This document shows, one piece after another, positions 16,276-28,345 of a stretch of DNA of 56,275 bases (the stretch's first letter is position 1; each line of letters opens with the position of its first letter). The DNA is from Patescibacteria group bacterium (GTDB taxonomy: Bacteria; Patescibacteriota; Minisyncoccia; Minisyncoccales; Staskawiczbacteraceae): contig JBBTQL010000002.1 in assembly GCA_038065715.1 (NCBI GenBank), forward strand, positions 1 to 56,275, given 5' to 3'. Both the position numbers and the translations under genes were made by a program. Under the pieces are notes generated by a model. That model had not been told where the DNA came from, searched no databases, and saw nothing but the letters and a program-made list of their open reading frames with translations.

Positions 16276-16346
16276 AGGGGCATAGTTCAATGGCAGAATA
16301 ATGGTCTCCAAAACCATTGATCAAGGTTCGAATCCTTGTGCCCCTG
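16276..16346 (+). tRNA. trnW: tRNA-Trp (anticodon CCA)
   Basis: Cloverleaf: acceptor AGGGGCA/TGCCCCT, anticodon arm ATGGT-CTCCAAA-ACCAT, T arm CAAGG-TTCGAAT-CCTTG. Confidence 0.93.
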
Positions 16347-16406
16347 CCTTCGCTTCGCTGTAGCGAAGCTTCGGCAAGGCGAAGCCTGCCTAAGATTCGC
16401 GAAGGC
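16346..16406. repeat. GC-rich palindromic repeat element, copy 1, directly abutting the tRNA-Trp 3' end
   Basis: Overlapping hairpins GCTTCGC-TGTA-GCGAAGC (16352-16369) and GCTTCG-GCAAGG-CGAAGC (16368-16385), with an outer GCCTTCGC (16346-16353) / GCGAAGGC (16399-16406) pair. Confidence 0.85.
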
Positions 16407-16418
16407 GAGAACAATAAA

Positions 16419-16649
16419 ATGTTTTATGTTTATAATTTAAAATGTAAAGATGGGTTTTATACAGGTTGCACGAACGATATTGTAGATAGGCTAAAAAGGC
16501 ACGAAAACGGCGAGGTTATCGCTACTGCAAATCGCTTGCCGGTTAGTTTGCATTTCTATATGGCTATTGAGGATAAATATAAAGCATACGAATTAGAAAA
16601 GTATTTCAAGTCTGGATCAGGAAGGGCATTTGTAAATAAGCATTTATAA
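16419..16649 (+). CDS. GIY-YIG nuclease-domain protein (76 aa)
   Basis: FYVYNLKCKDGFYTGCTNDIVDRLKRHENG matches the GIY-YIG (URI) motif. The ORF-track start at 16317 overlaps the tRNA, so it is trimmed to the ATG at 16419. Confidence 0.8.
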   Translation: MFYVYNLKCKDGFYTGCTNDIVDRLKRHENGEVIATANRLPVSLHFYMAIEDKYKAYELEKYFKSGSGRAFVNKHL

Positions 16650-16786: not shown

Positions 16787-16809
16787 AAAAAAGTTCCAAC
16801 CAATGGAAC
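16787..16809 (-). terminator. Intrinsic terminator of the GC-rich operon
   Basis: On the minus strand: GTTCCA-UUGGU-UGGAAC followed by UUUUUU. Confidence 0.75.
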
Positions 16810-16857
16810 TTTTGAGAGCGTCTAAGCAGGTGAACAAAATATAAAATCTGCTGAGCG

Positions 16858-17226
16858 CTATTCGCCGATGAAATCAGGATCAGTATTCTCGAAGAACTCC
16901 TCGGTCTTCATATACTTTTCCAACTCACGCTGGAAGTACTCGTCGAACTGGTCATCGGCGATGCCCAGTTTCTTGGCCGCCTCTCGGAGCTCGGGCTCCA
17001 GCTTGCGGGAACCGATTTCAGCCGCACGCTTTACGTACCTCGTGAGGAACGTGTAAGCCGCGAGATCCTCCAAAGGAACCCCCATCTTTACGGCAAGCTT
17101 GTCTAAGTCACCGAAAAGATCGTACCAGTCCAGCATGGCCTTCCAGCCTCCCTGACGATTCAGTTCGGCTTCTTCTTGGATGGCTGTCTGCCGGAGAAGT
17201 TCCTCCATTATTTTCACACCAGTCAT
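16858..17226 (-). CDS. Orphan protein D (122 aa, net acidic), 4th cistron of the GC-rich operon
   Basis: SD GAAGGAG lies 6 nt upstream of the ATG. GC-rich codon usage. No motif recognised. Confidence 0.7.
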   Translation of the reverse strand: MTGVKIMEELLRQTAIQEEAELNRQGGWKAMLDWYDLFGDLDKLAVKMGVPLEDLAAYTFLTRYVKRAAEIGSRKLEPELREAAKKLGIADDQFDEYFQRELEKYMKTEEFFENTDPDFIGE

Positions 17227-17254
17227 GTTTCGCTCCTTCTAAATGTACAAATTT

Positions 17255-17306
17255 CTGTTTTCGTCCTTTCGGACTCATCAGTTCCGATAACACATCGGAA
17301 TAACAG
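17255..17306 (-). ncRNA. Type III hammerhead ribozyme motif (HHR-1)
   Basis: Minus strand: CUGUUA / UUCCGAU-GUGUU-AUCGGAA / CUGAUGA / GUCC-GAAA-GGAC / GAAA / ACAG. All core nucleotides are present and stem III is a 5-bp CUGUU/AACAG. Confidence 0.8.
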
Positions 17307-17360
17307 GAGGGTTTTGTTTTAGGCAACCCTCATGCCTTTCTTATCGTTGCATTTAACCCG

Positions 17361-17537
17361 TTAGGGTTTGGTCTGGCTGGGCGAATTCGCATTCTGCCTT
17401 GCCAGCTTCGCGTCGAGCCTCCGGATCATTGCCTGCCTTTCGGCAGATGTCATACTCTTCAGCTCGGCGTAACGCCTTTTCCCTAGAAGCCGTTGAACGG
17501 CTTCGGGAGTCAGTTCTCTCGCTTCCTCATCCGTCAT
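17361..17537 (-). CDS. Unannotated 58-aa basic helical ORF C (MTDEEARELTPEAVQRLLGKRRYAELKSMTSAERQAMIRRLDAKLARQNANSPSQTKP)
   Basis: Translated by hand codon by codon. ATG at 17537, TAA at 17363-17361, SD AAAGGAG 7 nt upstream. It starts 23 nt after the stop of cistron B and is below the 60-aa ORF-track cutoff. Confidence 0.6.
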   Translation of the reverse strand: MTDEEARELTPEAVQRLLGKRRYAELKSMTSAERQAMIRRLDAKLARQNANSPSQTKP

Positions 17538-17560
17538 TGGATGACTCCTTTTTGGTTGTT

Positions 17561-17971
17561 TCAGCAGATGTCGCCGTTGGCATTGAAGTTTACGGCTGTA
17601 CCATAGAACTCCTGCTTGGCTGACTTTCGGTAGAACCGAATTTCAACTCTCACCGTGCAGTTGATAAATGCCTTCAAAGTTGCCTCAATTCGCACTGACT
17701 CGCGGAATTCTCTGAAAATCCTATCCGATTCCGCATGGCAGCCATCAAAAAACTTGTATATGATCTGCAACTGCGGACGCAACTCTTCACGGTCGTGATA
17801 GCCACTCATCAGAAGCCCGACAAGTTCAGCCGGAAATACGACTGCATGATTGAAGGCTTTCGCCAGTAATCCGCTATCTTTCACGCCGGTCTCGCACTCG
17901 AGATTCTTCTTATTCGTCAAACGCTGGCGGAGGTAGTTGTCGATAAAAATCGACACTTTCTTGAGTAACAT
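17561..17971 (-). CDS. Orphan protein B (136 aa), 2nd cistron
   Basis: The internal ATG at 17971 has SD AAAGGAG 7 nt upstream. The longer ORF-track start (18061) would read through the hammerhead motif. Confidence 0.65.
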   Translation of the reverse strand: MLLKKVSIFIDNYLRQRLTNKKNLECETGVKDSGLLAKAFNHAVVFPAELVGLLMSGYHDREELRPQLQIIYKFFDGCHAESDRIFREFRESVRIEATLKAFINCTVRVEIRFYRKSAKQEFYGTAVNFNANGDIC

Positions 17972-18022
17972 CGCGATTCTCCTTTTGGGAAATGGCTCGC
18001 TATGGCCAATAAAAATGTGCAA

Positions 18023-18071
18023 CTGTTTCGTCCTTTTGGACTCATCAGGGAAAGCACACACTTTCCGACAG
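18023..18071 (-). ncRNA. Type III hammerhead ribozyme motif (HHR-2)
   Basis: Minus strand: CUGUC / GGAAAG-UGUGUG-CUUUCC / CUGAUGA / GUCC-AAAA-GGAC / GAAA / CAG. The core is complete with a GUC cleavage triplet. Confidence 0.82.
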
Positions 18072-18139
18072 ATGGAGAAATTTGGATGTGTCGGTATTCT
18101 CCGTTGCGCTGGCGCGCACCGACTTATTATCGTGGGAGG

Positions 18140-18709
18140 TTACTCCTCGTGTTCACTCTCCGGGTAGAGAGTTAGCTCTGAAACGGGTTTCCATTTCTTC
18201 CCGTCCCACAAGCGGCTTCCGTTCGGAAGCTCCACGACATCGTTGTCGAACTGATCGTTGAAGGCCATCCAGTGATTGATATCCTTTCTGCACCGGAACT
18301 TCCCGCTGTGGCCCATGTCAGCGCTATACAACCTTGACCCCCACGGCACCGCCAGTAAGCGATATCCGTAATGATCTCCGCTGTTATGGCTGAACGTGGA
18401 CGCCACGACGAGAGCATCTCGCGAACCAATCCCTGCCAGTGCCTGATCAACTCCGACCAGGCAATCTAGCAACTCGACCTCCTGTCCGCGGAACACATAG
18501 ATCCGCTCCTCTTCCACGCCGAGGTTGGCGAAGCGCACGAAGTCCTCCTTTGGCCTGGGCTGGGGTTTGAACCCCACTTTCTCCAGTGCCAAGTTGAAGG
18601 CTTCGAGCACCTTCTCGCTTCCCATCTGGACATCCGAGTCCAGGGCGAACAAACGATCGATGCCACAGAAATCGTTGACCGGACCGACGAAGTAACGGTA
18701 AGTAGCCAT
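18140..18709 (-). CDS. Orphan protein A (189 aa), 1st cistron
   Basis: GC-rich ORF with GAAAGGA 9 nt upstream of the ATG. No motif recognised. Confidence 0.7.
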   Translation of the reverse strand: MATYRYFVGPVNDFCGIDRLFALDSDVQMGSEKVLEAFNLALEKVGFKPQPRPKEDFVRFANLGVEEERIYVFRGQEVELLDCLVGVDQALAGIGSRDALVVASTFSHNSGDHYGYRLLAVPWGSRLYSADMGHSGKFRCRKDINHWMAFNDQFDNDVVELPNGSRLWDGKKWKPVSELTLYPESEHEE

Positions 18710-18789
18710 GAGATTTGTTCCTTTCAGGAAAACGGGCTCTCTATGGCCCTAAATCAGGGGAAGCACCTATACTACAATGTACTATATTA

Positions 18790-18818
18790 AGTATATAATA
18801 CTCTAACCATATTGTCAA
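18790..18818 (-). promoter_or_regulatory. Sigma70-type promoter of the GC-rich operon
   Basis: Minus strand: TTGACA (18818-18813), a 17-nt spacer, TATACT (18795-18790), then TAATATA. Confidence 0.7.
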
Positions 18819-18863
18819 GGGGTCGTTCTTGCAAAGTGGAATAGGTGAGGAATAAAGCACCAT

Positions 18864-18892
18864 CCTTCGCTAAAGCTTCGGCATGGCGAAGC
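18864..18892. repeat. GC-rich palindromic repeat element, copy 2
   Basis: CCTTCGCTAAAGCTTCGGCATGGCGAAGC shares CCTTCGCT and AGCTTCGGCA-GGCGAAGC with the copy at 16346-16406. Hairpin GCTTCG-GCATGG-CGAAGC. Confidence 0.8.
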
Positions 18893-18969: not shown

Positions 18970-21939
18970 ATGGCATTAAATTTGTCTGAATTAAATAACG
19001 AACAAAAAGAGGCTGTTTTGCATAAAGACGGCCCGCTTTTAATTGTGGCCGGCGCAGGAACCGGAAAAACCACAGTTATTACTCAAAGAATAGTAAATTT
19101 AATTGAAAAAGGGCTGGCAAAACCCGAAGAAATTTTAGCTGTAACTTTTACCGAAAAAGCAGCTTCTGAAATGGAAGAAAGAGTAGACAGGCTTTTAGAA
19201 TATGGCTATGTTGATTTGTGGATTTCAACATTTCACTCGTTTTGCGAAAGGATTTTACGCGAAAACGCTTTAGATATTGGGCTTCCTTCTGATTTTAAAA
19301 TTTTAAATTCCACAGACGCATGGCTTTTAATCAGGCAAAATTTAGACAGATTTGACTTAGACTATTACAAAGCTTTGGGCAATCCTGCAAAATTTATACA
19401 GGCATTAATTTACCATTTTTCACACTGCAAAGACCAGGAAATTTATCCTGAAAATTATTTGGAATATGCAGATAATTTAAAAACAAGAGACGATGCTCCA
19501 GAAACAGAAGAAATAGAAAGAATAAAAGAGGTGGCAAATGCTTATCATATTTATCAGCAGATACTTTTAGAAAATAGTTTTTTGGATTTTGGCGATTTGA
19601 TAAATTATTGTTTAAAGTTATTTAAAAAACGCCAGTTAATTTTAAAAAAATATCAGGAAAAGTTTAAGTATATTTTAGTTGACGAGTTTCAAGATACAAA
19701 CTGGTCGCAGTATGAGCTTGTAAAAATGCTGGCTGAACCAAAAAATAATTTAACTGTCTGCGCCGACGACGATCAGGCAATTTATAGGTGGCGAGGGGCG
19801 AGTTTTTCAAATATAGTGCAGTTTATAAACGATTTTAAAACATCTAAACAAATTTCTTTGATTAAAAATTACAGGTCAAGCCAAAATATTTTGGATTTAT
19901 CATATAAATTTATAAAGCAAAACGATCCAGATAGATTAGAATTTGTAAATAAAATTGATAAAAAACTTGTTGCCATGCCTACCGGCAGGCAGGCAGAAAT
20001 AAAAGAAGAAGGAATCATAGAGCACATTCATGCAACAACATTAGATGAAGAAGTTGGCAAAACAATAAGAAAAATTTTAGAAATTTTAAAAAAAGATAAA
20101 GATGCAGATTATAATGATTTTGCTATTTTAGTAAGGGCAAATGATTCTGCCGTGCCCTTTATTAAAGCATTAGACAGAGCTAATTTACCTTATCAATTTT
20201 TGGCTTCCCGCGGGCTATATTCAAAACCCTGTGTTTTAGACGTTATTTCATATTTTAAGCTTTTAGACAATTACCACGAGAGCGCCGCGGTTTACAGAAT
20301 TTTAAATTTAGAATTTTTAGAAATTTTAGACACAGACATTGCAAAACTTACCCAGTACAGCCATAAAAAAACAAAATCTCTTTTTGAAACATTAGAAGAG
20401 CTCCCTTTGGTGCAAGGCATTTCTAAAAAAACGCAAGAAAAAGTTGCTTTTATTTTAAGCTTAATAAAAAAGCACAGTTTAGCTGCCCGCGAGAAATCAG
20501 CTTCAGAAATATTGGTCGCCTTTTTGGAAGATTCTGGATATTTAAAAAATTTAATTGATAATAATCAACAAGAAAAAATTGATTTGTTAAACCAGTTCTA
20601 TAAAAAAATAAAAAGTTTTGAAGAGGCAGCCGCAGACTCTTCTTTAAAAAATTTTGTTGAAAAAATTAATATGGAATTGGAATCTGGCGAGGAAGGGAAA
20701 CTGGAATTTGATCCAGAACAGGGACCAGATATGATAAAAGTAATGACAATCCACGGAGCAAAAGGATTAGAGTTTAAATATGTGTTTTTGGCGAATATGG
20801 TTGATAAAAGGTTTCCTACAATTGGAAGAAAAGATCCAATTGAGCTTCCAGATGAATTAATTAAAGACATAAAGCCAAAGGGAGATGTCCATTTGCAGGA
20901 GGAAAGGCGAATTTGCTATGTGGCAATGACAAGGGCAAAAAAGGGGCTTTATTTCACTTCAGCTGATGATTATGGCGGGCAAAGAAAGAAAAAATTATCG
21001 CGCTTTTTAGTTGAAATGGGATATAGTGAAAAATCCCAAAGCCCAAATCTCAAAGCCCAAAACGGGGTATTGGCGGAGAAGATTTCGGCGCCGGAGTTAA
21101 AGAAAAAAGTAAAACCAGAATATCTGCCTGCGCATTTTTCTTTTTCGCAATTGGCTGCTTTTGAAAAATGCCCTTTGCAATATAAATTTGGCTTTATTAT
21201 GAAAGTTCCTGTGCGGGGCAAAGCAGTTTTTTCTTTTGGAAAAACAATGCACAACACTTTGTATAGTTTTTTGAAAAATATTAACGGAAACAATAATATA
21301 AAACAAGAAAATTTATTTGGTTTTTCAGAGAAGCTGATACAAGAAAAGAAACATAAAAATTTTGATTATCTCATAGAACTATATGAAAAGAACTGGATTG
21401 ATGAATGGTATCCTGATAAAAAAAATAAAGACGAATACTATAAATTAGGCAAGCAAATATTAAAAGATTTTTATGCGCAATTTGAAAAAGATGAGCCAAA
21501 AATTTTAAAAATAGACCATTCGCCGGGCTCAGGGCAAGCTACATTAGCATTAGAACTGCCGTTTAATTTAAAGATAGCAGATTACACTTTATTTGGAGTA
21601 ATTGACCGCATAGATGAATTAGAAAATGGCGTTGAAATTATTGATTATAAAACAGGCGCATCAAAAAATAAATTAGATTTTGAAAATAAAGAACAGCTTT
21701 TAATATATCAAATTGCGGCAGAAGAAGTGTTAAAAATAAAGCCAAAACAGCTTTCGTATTATTATTTGGAAGAAAATAAAAAAGCATCATTTTTGGGGAC
21801 AGAAAAAGAAATTGCTTCCCAAAAAGAAAAAATAATTAAAGAAATAGAAAAAATAAAAAACAGCGAATTTAAGGCAACTCCTGGCTGGCAGTGCCAATAT
21901 TGCGACTTCCGCGACATTTGCGATTTTGCCCAGCGCTAA
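18970..21939 (+). CDS. UvrD/PcrA-type helicase fused to a C-terminal PD-(D/E)XK (AddB/Cas4-like) nuclease domain
   Basis: Walker A AGAGTGKTT, DEFQDT, and a C-terminal IDYKTG plus Cys cluster (EKCPLQY ... CQYCDFRDIC). Confidence 0.88.
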   Translation: MALNLSELNNEQKEAVLHKDGPLLIVAGAGTGKTTVITQRIVNLIEKGLAKPEEILAVTFTEKAASEMEERVDRLLEYGYVDLWISTFHSFCERILRENALDIGLPSDFKILNSTDAWLLIRQNLDRFDLDYYKALGNPAKFIQALIYHFSHCKDQEIYPENYLEYADNLKTRDDAPETEEIERIKEVANAYHIYQQILLENSFLDFGDLINYCLKLFKKRQLILKKYQEKFKYILVDEFQDTNWSQYELVKMLAEPKNNLTVCADDDQAIYRWRGASFSNIVQFINDFKTSKQISLIKNYRSSQNILDLSYKFIKQNDPDRLEFVNKIDKKLVAMPTGRQAEIKEEGIIEHIHATTLDEEVGKTIRKILEILKKDKDADYNDFAILVRANDSAVPFIKALDRANLPYQFLASRGLYSKPCVLDVISYFKLLDNYHESAAVYRILNLEFLEILDTDIAKLTQYSHKKTKSLFETLEELPLVQGISKKTQEKVAFILSLIKKHSLAAREKSASEILVAFLEDSGYLKNLIDNNQQEKIDLLNQFYKKIKSFEEAAADSSLKNFVEKINMELESGEEGKLEFDPEQGPDMIKVMTIHGAKGLEFKYVFLANMVDKRFPTIGRKDPIELPDELIKDIKPKGDVHLQEERRICYVAMTRAKKGLYFTSADDYGGQRKKKLSRFLVEMGYSEKSQSPNLKAQNGVLAEKISAPELKKKVKPEYLPAHFSFSQLAAFEKCPLQYKFGFIMKVPVRGKAVFSFGKTMHNTLYSFLKNINGNNNIKQENLFGFSEKLIQEKKHKNFDYLIELYEKNWIDEWYPDKKNKDEYYKLGKQILKDFYAQFEKDEPKILKIDHSPGSGQATLALELPFNLKIADYTLFGVIDRIDELENGVEIIDYKTGASKNKLDFENKEQLLIYQIAAEEVLKIKPKQLSYYYLEENKKASFLGTEKEIASQKEKIIKEIEKIKNSEFKATPGWQCQYCDFRDICDFAQR

Positions 21940-27641: not shown

Positions 27642-28271
27642 CTACGCCGGTACAATTTGGACAGTGCCACCCCTGACGCACAGTTGGCGTTTGGGGACGA
27701 TGGGCACAGGCCCTTCGCCAATGCGATTTCCCTGGTCATCCTTTTCCCACCGCTTGATGAGTTCGCCATTTGGCTGGACGATCGTATCGCGGGCCGCGAG
27801 GTTCACGCTCAAGGCGCGTTGGTCTTGGACTTCCTCGTCCTTAAAAAAGAACGGGTTGTCGAAGACACGGACTCGCCACATCGCATTTTCAGCCATGTTC
27901 TGTAAAGCGAAGCGAATCTCGTCACGCACCGAACGGAATTCGTCGCTGAGCTCCGCGGACTCGCGGCGGCAGAAGACAAAGCGAACCATGTGATAAGTCC
28001 GTCTCTGCCGGGGATCCTTCGGGTCAATGCGCTCTTTGTAGGACGCGTCAACCAATTCGAATCCCGCCTGCTCGAGCCCGAGAGGGAACTCTACGAGTCC
28101 ACACCCCGGCGTTGGCTCAATAACGAGCACGCCGTTTGAGTGGGTCTTCCGTTCCTTGTGCTCCGCAGGCGACTCCTTCTCTGTCCGCTTCACCACCTCC
28201 GGAATCGCGGCAGGGTTGGTGAAAGAAAACTGCACCACAACCATTCTAACACACTCGCGCAAGGTCACCAT
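27642..28271 (-). CDS. Orphan protein (209 aa) of GC-rich cassette 2
   Basis: GC-rich ORF with SD GAGGAG 7 nt upstream of the ATG. No motif recognised. Confidence 0.7.
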   Translation of the reverse strand: MVTLRECVRMVVVQFSFTNPAAIPEVVKRTEKESPAEHKERKTHSNGVLVIEPTPGCGLVEFPLGLEQAGFELVDASYKERIDPKDPRQRRTYHMVRFVFCRRESAELSDEFRSVRDEIRFALQNMAENAMWRVRVFDNPFFFKDEEVQDQRALSVNLAARDTIVQPNGELIKRWEKDDQGNRIGEGPVPIVPKRQLCVRGGTVQIVPA

Positions 28272-28316
28272 TGCTGGTCTCCTCGGGAAAAGGAAAAAGT
28301 GAAGTGTATTATATTA

Positions 28317-28345
28317 AGTATAGCATATATAAATAATCTTGTCAA
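28317..28345 (-). promoter_or_regulatory. Sigma70-type promoter of cassette 2
   Basis: Minus strand: TTGACA (28345-28340), a 17-nt spacer, TATACT (28322-28317), then TAATATA. This is the same 13-mer TATACTTAATATA seen at 18795-18783. Confidence 0.7.

Follow-up and report, generated by a model that had tools for sequence, protein, structure and literature searches.

The GC-rich operon and its genes

A stretch of 56,275 nucleotides (nt) from a tiny-celled Patescibacteria group bacterium (assembly GCA_038065715.1, contig JBBTQL010000002.1; hereafter the window) carries on its minus strand a GC-rich operon that extends from 16787 to 18818 and forms a 2-kb horizontally acquired unit, complete from promoter to terminator. 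Its four genes, here called A to D, are interrupted by two hammerhead ribozymes, one in the A/B spacer and one in the C/D spacer, and each of these ribozymes is immediately preceded in the transcript by an H-type pseudoknot. The sequence-only reading that drew attention to the locus had described a complete minus-strand expression unit, and the promoter, genes, ribozymes and terminator that it named all exist. On the evidence gathered below, the unit is probably moron-like: an accessory operon that belongs to a mobile element of Patescibacteria and whose mRNA would process itself.

Transcription would start from a sigma-70-type promoter at 18790-18818 (TTGACA, a 17-nt spacer and TATACT, on the minus strand), which agrees with the consensus at 11/12 positions and is the best match between 16200 and 19100. 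Four minus-strand open reading frames (ORFs) follow: A (18140-18709), with 189 amino acids (aa), acidic and with an isoelectric point (pI) of 5.1; B (17561-17971), with 136 aa, basic, pI 8.9; C (17361-17537), with 58 aa, very basic, pI 10.1, and predicted to be helical; and D (16858-17226), with 122 aa, acidic, pI 4.6, and all-helical. Each is preceded, 6-9 nt upstream, by a Shine-Dalgarno (SD) box of the form AAGGA or AAGGAG (AAAAGGAG in the case of B). The unit ends in a terminator (16787-16813, minus strand), consisting of a 10-bp A/U-flanked hairpin and a U-run, with a folding energy of -11.9 kcal/mol and a z-score of -2.3. This terminator is kept in L005, a larger related island discussed below, where it is followed by a new promoter.

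None of the four proteins has a significant match in Pfam, PHROGs, PADLOC or NCBIfam, in agreement with the sequence-only reading, which had recognised no motif in any of them. The same reading had called the operon an orphan, a description that stands for B and C within the searches made and fails for A, which has 11 full-length homologues (30-44% identity) in an exhaustive HMMER search, none of which had been found by a word-indexed search. A thus belongs to a small uncharacterised family, in the alignment of which R74, E77, H108, N145, D152 and two tryptophans are conserved. Its AlphaFold model is alpha/beta and confident, with a predicted local distance difference test score (pLDDT) of 87; the structure search that had been proposed for recognising a known fold returned no match for this model in PDB or BFVD, the profile of A found nothing among PDB sequences, and Pfam searches with all the members of the family gave no consistent result. 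D has a single homologue, P0003, which is 90% identical and is encoded on L005. The ratio of nonsynonymous to synonymous change between the two (pN/pS = 0.14) indicates that D is a real gene under purifying selection; its AlphaFold model is helical but weak (pLDDT 65), too weak for a fold search. For B, the only protein found among 5.8 billion was B itself, and the related islands contain no homologue of it. C has no homologue in any of the loci fetched, the large protein databases not having been searched with it, and no family match above noise.

Hammerhead ribozymes and the structures that precede them

Both ribozymes are type III hammerheads encoded in tandem on the minus strand, 767 nt apart. 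Hammerhead 1 occupies 18023-18071, with predicted cleavage after C18067, and hammerhead 2 occupies 17255-17306, with predicted cleavage after A17301; the transcript would accordingly be cut into A, B-C and D pieces, as the sequence-only reading had anticipated. The two copies have the core CUGAUGA...GAAA, a stem I of 7-8 bp and a stem II of 4 bp, both closed by loops, and an open stem III of 4-5 bp, and the triplet at the cleavage site is GUC in hammerhead 1 and UUA in hammerhead 2. Against a gathering score of 48.5 bits, the Rfam family Hammerhead_3 (RF00008) scores hammerhead 1 at 49.7 bits and hammerhead 2, below that score, at 19.4 bits. A strict type III descriptor matches these two copies and nothing else in the window, the chance expectation being 0.005 per dinucleotide-shuffled window. 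Additionally, a covariance model, R1, which was built from 72 related 49-nt hammerheads of other genomes with the window excluded, assigns 72.8 bits (E 7e-23) to hammerhead 1 and 57.5 bits (E 2e-17) to hammerhead 2 and has no further match in the window. The minimum-free-energy fold of hammerhead 2 is the canonical three-stem structure. By Rfam for the first copy, and by the descriptor and the R1 model for both, the two hammerheads are genuine.

The subclass to which they belong is common. Its sequence pattern, CTGAYGAGTCCNAAAGGACGAAA, was found in no fewer than 90 viral contigs and in over 120 genome contigs, and 58 of the 80 genome records listed have Patescibacteria-type names, as judged by the organism labels of the depositors. 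It is also uniform, with a length of 49 nt, a loop I of the form RUGNGUR and a stem II of the form UCC-AAAA-GGA. Arrays of these hammerheads reach 8 copies in 4 kb and, for example, flank a phage-type DNA helicase. A pairing of loop I with a downstream box, TTGYACAWTTT, which follows the hammerheads of the window and of L005, was considered and dropped, as there is no excess complementarity (3.64 across 256 hammerheads, as compared with 3.65-3.77 in controls).

The pseudoknots were read from the sequence and were also recovered by an automatic search. The first, PK1 (18074-18123, minus strand), has a stem S1 GUCGGU/ACCGAC, a stem S2 GGAGAA/UUCUCC and an inner hairpin GCGCgccaGCGC, and ends 2 nt before hammerhead 1. 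The second, PK2 (17307-17337, minus strand), has a stem S1 AGGC/GCCU, a stem S2 GAGGGUU/AACCCUC and an A-rich linker, and abuts hammerhead 2. The same architecture is found before the hammerhead of L005 and in the spacers of four other related islands (L220, L217, L390 and L396). In fact, stable structure directly 5′ of the hammerheads of this class is a general rule, and a robust one. In a set of 246 such hammerheads, made non-redundant, the mean folding energy of the 45 nt directly upstream is -12.1 kcal/mol, as against -6.7 kcal/mol for shuffled sequences, -8.1 kcal/mol further upstream and -4.0 kcal/mol downstream (p ~1e-32), and in 83% of them the last upstream helix ends no more than 6 nt before the ribozyme. 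These structures are not terminators, since they lack a U-tract.

A second, sequence-conserved form of this arrangement of structure and hammerhead was observed in viral contigs, many of about 60 kb, in which a nearly invariant hairpin, GGGGUGGUGUCUUCAAAGACACUGCCCC, lies just upstream of the hammerhead (L011, L014, L020, L036, L042, L046, L059 and L062, among others).

Two ribozymes in tandem could also be read as a device for RNA mobility, in which the B-C segment would be released between the hammerheads and circularised, like a retrozyme or a viroid-like RNA, to serve either as mRNA in circular form or as an intermediate in mobility. The tandem type III arrangement speaks for this reading, the predicted 5′-OH and 2′,3′-cyclic-phosphate ends would be substrates for RtcB-type ligases, and the boundaries of gene cassettes (see below) coincide with the hammerheads. 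Nevertheless, we regard such a circle as very improbable. In register, ACAG, the stem III strand on the 3′ side of hammerhead 1, does not pair with CUGUU, its counterpart on the 5′ side of hammerhead 2, and because of this mismatch no chimeric ligating hammerhead would be possible; there is no reverse transcriptase nearby; and Perreault et al. sought circular or spliced products of such arrays and found none (PMC3088659).

Besides the ribozymes, the transcript has two boxes in its 5′-untranslated regions (5′-UTRs). The first, GGCCAUAGAGAGCC, would form a small hairpin GGGC/GCCC at 18735-18748 (minus strand), some 30 nt before A begins, and the second, GGCCAUAGCGAGCC, lies at 17994-18007 (minus strand), between hammerhead 1 and the SD box of B. 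A variant, CAUAGAGCC, is also present in the leader of L005 (22-30). More generally, a box of the form GGCCAUAG(A/C)GAGCC or CAUAGAGCC is found about 30 nt before the starts of A, of B and of the first ORF of L005; its pairing partners vary from copy to copy, and the stability of its folding is not significant.

Foreign origin and site of insertion

The composition of the operon sets it apart from its surroundings. Its GC content is 0.503, versus 0.347 for the remainder of the window, and a recount gave 34 G+C in 18421-18480 and 11 in 19621-19680, exactly the figures on which the sequence-only reading had based its claim of a flip in base composition. At third codon positions the GC content (GC3) is 0.60-0.70 in ORFs A to D, versus 0.21-0.32 in the neighbouring genes for UvrD, a peptidase and a GIY-YIG protein, which points to a recent import from a donor with about 50-55% GC.

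A break as sharp as this one, together with a layout resembling that of designed operons with hammerhead insulators (a consensus promoter, strong ribosome-binding sites and a terminator), would also be expected of an assembly chimera or of contaminating engineered DNA, a worry raised by the sequence-only reading itself. The protein A is present on 7 contigs in the protein index, and four of these places were fetched (L001-L004), their sources being one metagenome-assembled genome, two independently assembled runs and one ENA assembly. Over 2,701 nt that include both junctions, L001-L003 do not differ from the window (100% identity), and L004 covers 1,435 nt that include the junction on the uvrD side. 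At least three further datasets thus yielded the same junctions in independent assemblies. Furthermore, natural relatives of A, of D, of both ribozymes and of the pseudoknots exist in many environmental genomes, and blastn found nothing that matched the island in collections of phages and plasmids. The worry is refuted by these observations, and we give an artefactual origin practically no weight.

The host side of the junctions is equally informative. Relatives of uvrD place the host among Staskawiczbacteria-like Patescibacteria, and in the closest of them, L222 (UvrD 83% identical), only 65 bp separate tRNA-Trp from the start codon of uvrD; judged by this sequence, the spacer of L222 is the empty site. 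The operon is a real foreign insertion into the tRNA-Trp/uvrD intergenic spacer. The tRNA-Trp (CCA) gene, at 16276-16348 on the plus strand, is the landmark of this insertion hot spot. An imperfect direct repeat is present on the plus strand at either side: its left copy (16340-16385), a possible attL, begins in the last 9 nt of tRNA-Trp, and its right copy, GCACCATCCTTCGCTAAAGCTTCGGCATGGCGAAGC (18857-18892), is a possible attR. The 20-nt core of the repeat occurs twice in the window, with 0 occurrences expected, and its overlap with the 3′ end of tRNA-Trp is of only ~2-9 nt. The adjacency to a tRNA gene was also considered as a trait of islands carrying relatives of A and was rejected, as it is not general among them.

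The two copies of the repeat enclose a 2.5-kb segment that consists of the operon and a small GIY-YIG gene of 76 aa (16419-16649, plus strand; annotated as GIY-YIG by Pfam on L001), the GC3 of which is host-like (0.32). This gene is not in the empty site of L222 either, and its homologues elsewhere carry flanking repeats of their own; it is probably a separate mobile insertion.

Related islands and the exchange of gene cassettes

A much larger related island is L005, which is GC-rich and has at least 4.7 kb and 13 small ORFs on the same strand, one of which is the homologue of D. Positions 17281-16777 of the window align with positions 646-1150 of L005 at 89%, from precisely the hammerhead core to a point past the terminator, 16777; the genes upstream of this stretch differ. 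The only module common to both is, consequently, the core of hammerhead 2 with D and the terminator. The homologues of A sit among other genes, in GC-rich islands of small ORFs within several genomes of the Candidate Phyla Radiation (CPR). A hairpin and a hammerhead again come after the A homologue in L393, and in L221 the A homologue stands alone, with its own promoter and terminator. Given that A and D travel separately and with other partners, the genes move as individual cassettes, and the four-gene set is not a conserved system. The co-occurrence of the whole set elsewhere, for which the sequence-only reading had proposed a search, was not observed: hammerhead 2, D and the terminator recur, beside different genes.

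An integron-like arrangement with attC cassettes was considered, as a structured repeat follows every gene, and was rejected: by eye, with no formal test, there are no R′/R″ (GTTRRRY) boxes.

The existence of a much larger related island, the absence of any integrase or other mobility gene and the lack of homologues of B and C might suggest that the operon is the leftover end of a larger element or prophage, a decaying relic that is no longer expressed or of use and whose ribozymes and ORFs have simply not yet decayed, the more so as a composition that has not ameliorated towards that of the host would make the event recent. We consider this unlikely. No damage is seen in the four ORFs, the promoter, the two ribozyme cores, the two pseudoknots or the terminator, D is under purifying selection, and the sequence is identical across several samples.

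The sequence-only reading had also suggested that the layout would suit a toxin-antitoxin or anti-phage defence module, in which the ribozyme cuts would set distinct stabilities for the toxin and antitoxin messages. The alternation of acidic and basic products along the operon, the small size of the genes and their presence on a mobile island agree with such a module, and differential mRNA stability is a plausible form of regulation. By contrast, PADLOC yields 0 matches and nothing significant appears in Pfam, NCBIfam or PHROG, the four genes never occur together elsewhere, and A and D are found with other partners or, in the case of A in L221, with none. The suggestion lacks a supporting family match or gene association, and we rate it as quite improbable, somewhat more so than the relic.

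Our working view of the cargo, drawn from its context, is that these may be accessory genes for conflict between element and host. This view is based on the small size of the genes of phage-like islands and from the fact that hammerheads elsewhere flank anti-restriction and replication genes.

Islands of the A family were often observed downstream of a TrmB-like regulator and of an ORF-poor stretch with repeated TTGACAAGATT-type promoters. The regulator, of 253-259 aa, stands at the start of the island and is followed by 0.7-1.9 kb with few ORFs and several near-identical TTGACAAGATT...TATAAT promoters, from which transcripts would begin with CAUAGGGUGAA (L217 304-2531; L390 4564-7204; L395 7274-8753; L396 1630-3083 and 4850-5927; L407 5496-8366; L409 9449-11570). 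These transcripts may be small or large non-coding RNAs.

A proposed self-processing transcript

We propose that the operon derives from a family of mobile islands or phage-like elements that reside in Patescibacteria (CPR) genomes and are richer in GC, and that it was inserted into the tRNA-Trp/uvrD spacer of a Staskawiczbacteria-like host. A single RNA would be made from its own strong promoter, and two punctuation modules, each composed of an H-type pseudoknot and, 0-2 nt further on, a type III hammerhead, would split this RNA by cuts after C18067 and A17301 into three mRNAs, encoding A, B-C and D, respectively. The upstream pieces would end in a 2′,3′-cyclic phosphate just behind the pseudoknot, and we infer that the pseudoknot acts there as a 3′ shield against exonucleases, replacing the hairpin of a terminator. 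The downstream pieces would start with a 5′-OH, followed by the folded body of the ribozyme, an unstructured leader and the SD site. Such an arrangement would uncouple the stability and the translation of the cistrons, and gene cassettes would, in addition, be exchanged between elements at the conserved modules, which would act as their joints.

Several points weigh against this proposal. Both cleavage in vivo and the fate of the resulting fragments are inferred from sequence. The three stems of the hammerheads covary across the 72 relatives used for R1, in a set that was picked by a descriptor demanding pairing, so that the count of covariation is inflated; similarly, compensatory changes were found at 8/10 pairs of the pseudoknot in 12 instances whose segments were chosen by eye, which biases that count upward. 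When hammerhead 1 is folded within 76 nt of sequence, the structure of minimum free energy has an alternative pairing that breaks stem I. There is no integrase or recombinase in 16.3-18.9 kb, no integrase or phage hallmark gene in the insert or its flanks, and no replication or structural phage gene in the insert (the sequence-only reading had likewise reported no integrase or transposase inside), so that the term mobile element relies on composition, repeats, the empty site and the relatives. The direct repeats, in turn, may be those of the GIY-YIG cassette rather than those of the island, their ownership being ambiguous because this gene has a host-like composition and its relatives have flanking repeats of their own. 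Finally, since B and C have no homologues, the case for them as proteins is limited to ORF length, SD sites and GC3. Even with these points counted, we hold a moron-like accessory operon with a self-processing mRNA to be the probable explanation.

Operons of this kind have precedents. Perreault et al. (2011, PLoS Comput Biol) described, in prophage-like DNA, clustered hammerheads that flank genes of inconstant identity, as in Clostridium scindens, Azorhizobium caulinodans and Agrobacterium tumefaciens; these hammerheads cleave in vitro, one array does so in vivo once cloned, and it was proposed that long transcripts are thereby processed to gene-length mRNAs (PMC3088659). As in those clusters, several hammerheads on the same strand lie here within about 2 kb, in intergenic positions, and flank single genes or short blocks. 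The operon of the window differs from them in its Patescibacteria host, in the absence of an integrase or recognisable phage gene at the locus, in its very uniform 49-50-nt type III subclass and in the conserved pseudoknot or hairpin before each copy. A review from 2019 still considered the function of bacterial hammerheads to be largely elusive (PMC6765202). In view of this precedent, of the commonness of the subclass and of the fact that the gene set does not recur as a whole, the claim of the sequence-only reading that the locus was the lead candidate for a new system is unsupported: the operon is a well-formed new example of the known hammerhead-punctuated operons of mobile elements. What is new here is the structure before each hammerhead, the exchange of cassettes at these modules and the presence of other RNA motifs, without an Rfam family, in the same slot. 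We found no description in the literature of a pseudoknot or hairpin directly preceding a hammerhead, and a search for hammerheads together with CPR or Patescibacteria returned nothing relevant.

Comparison with other systems may help to place the proposed mechanism. In the early genes of phage T7, intercistronic RNase III sites yield single mRNAs with stabilising 3′ stem-loops. Here too, structured intercistronic elements would split a polycistronic transcript and leave a 3′ structure, but the predicted cleavage is autocatalytic, would leave 5′-OH and 2′,3′-cyclic-phosphate ends and would not need the RNase III of the host. Synthetic insulators of the RiboJ type combine a hammerhead derived from sTRSV with a hairpin. 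Like them, the elements of the window have a type III hammerhead just 5′ of a ribosome-binding site, which would trim the upstream RNA and leave a folded 5′ end; unlike them, they are natural, have many environmental relatives and include an additional upstream pseudoknot, which would serve the upstream fragment. The general concept for the unit as a whole comes from phage morons and from cis-mobilisable mini-islands adjacent to tRNA genes. The operon shares with these a self-contained series of promoter, genes and terminator, a foreign composition, a position beside a tRNA, short direct repeats and the lack of an integrase of its own; it differs from them in that no prophage surrounds it and in that the repeats may belong to the adjacent GIY-YIG gene.

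Other RNA motifs in the intercistronic slot

A hammerhead occupies this slot in L005 and L393 as well as in the window. In the homologous islands, other conserved structures stand at this place, immediately 3′ of A-family genes and of the same pseudoknot. None of these motifs matched a family of Rfam 15, even at E values of up to 10. One of them, motif X, consists of CGUGAGWGGGGAYC, a variable and covarying hairpin with an A-rich loop, and GNGAGACCWCAG. It is found downstream of A-family genes in L216 (1097-1200), L219 (610-710), L220 (581-680) and L390 (9034-9120), is often preceded by a GUCAGGU...ACCUGAC helix, and was identified in 15 further metagenome loci (L398-L412). Motif X is absent from the viral contigs, and a scan of those contigs for another motif, Z, returned only an unrelated coding repeat of enteric prophages.

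A long CACUUCAGAG...UCUGAAGUG hairpin is present in nearly every spacer of L390 and L396. In nearly every spacer of these two islands and of L217, a hairpin or pseudoknot is followed by a long conserved hairpin of the form CACUUCAGAG-(AU-rich loop)-UCUGAAGUGGA (L390 3295-3501, 3748-4035, 7555-7735, 8189-8499, 9034-9249 and 9700-9905; L396 3557-3775, 4118-4330 and 4850-4930; L217 4485-4639, 4970-5098 and 6061-6165); the long CUUCAGAG hairpin at L390 7555-7735 is an example. These hairpins may be processing sites, perhaps RNase III-like, that stand in for the hammerhead.

A further motif was observed in 5′-UTRs, immediately before each SD box. It has the form GUUCUUUYCA..GGYAAGCCGUARG-hairpin(AUGUUG loop)-UAAGCGGUAGGCC and occurs in L220 (229-307, 745-825, 1465-1541, 1905-1987 and 2420-2499) and in L219 (16-90), with swaps between GCCG/CGGU and GCGG/CCGU that look compensatory.

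It is conceivable, and we advance it as a speculative and rather improbable idea, that the intercistronic slot of this family of elements is a nursery of undescribed functional RNAs. At least one of the motifs could be a new class of self-cleaving ribozyme or a dedicated processing site, and the pseudoknot before the hammerheads could be a new kind of exonuclease-blocking 3′ cap.

Other features of the window

A second GC-rich insertion, with a single gene, lies on the minus strand at 27642-28271, between host genes and dnaK. It encodes an orphan protein of 209 aa without a family match and has its own terminator; its promoter, CTTGACAAGATTATTTATATATGCTATACTTAATATAATACA, near 28300-28345, is closely similar to that of the operon, the near-identical context (TATACTTAATATA.TACA) driving this gene at 28.3 kb. 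The insertion has the look of a further moron, derived from the same type of donor.

Stand-alone small GIY-YIG genes in these CPR genomes adjoin or interrupt tRNA sequences and are flanked by short direct repeats, as seen in the window (16419-16649, with 16340-16415), in L278 (2449-2760) and in L275 (2700-3020). In L278, the 5′ segment of the tRNA is duplicated on either side of the GIY-YIG gene. Their placement suggests homing-type mobility.

At the beginning of the window, the match to 23S rRNA stops at model position 2632 (window position 227), and the 5S gene begins at 1991. A weak match to a group I intron was obtained between them, at 1488-1711 (26.4 bits, E 4e-4). The 3′ region of the 23S gene is probably interrupted by an intron or another insertion (window 1-2100); interrupted rRNA genes are common in CPR.

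Significance

The locus offers a compact, complete and easily clonable unit of 2 kb in which the uncoupling of cistron stability and translation by ribozymes can be tested. The near-constant hairpin or pseudoknot that abuts the ribozyme points, moreover, to a testable role, namely the protection of the 3′ end of the upstream message. RNA-rich neighbourhoods similar to these are where the twister-sister, pistol and hatchet ribozymes were found, and this subclass of hammerheads is abundant in Patescibacteria and in their mobile elements.

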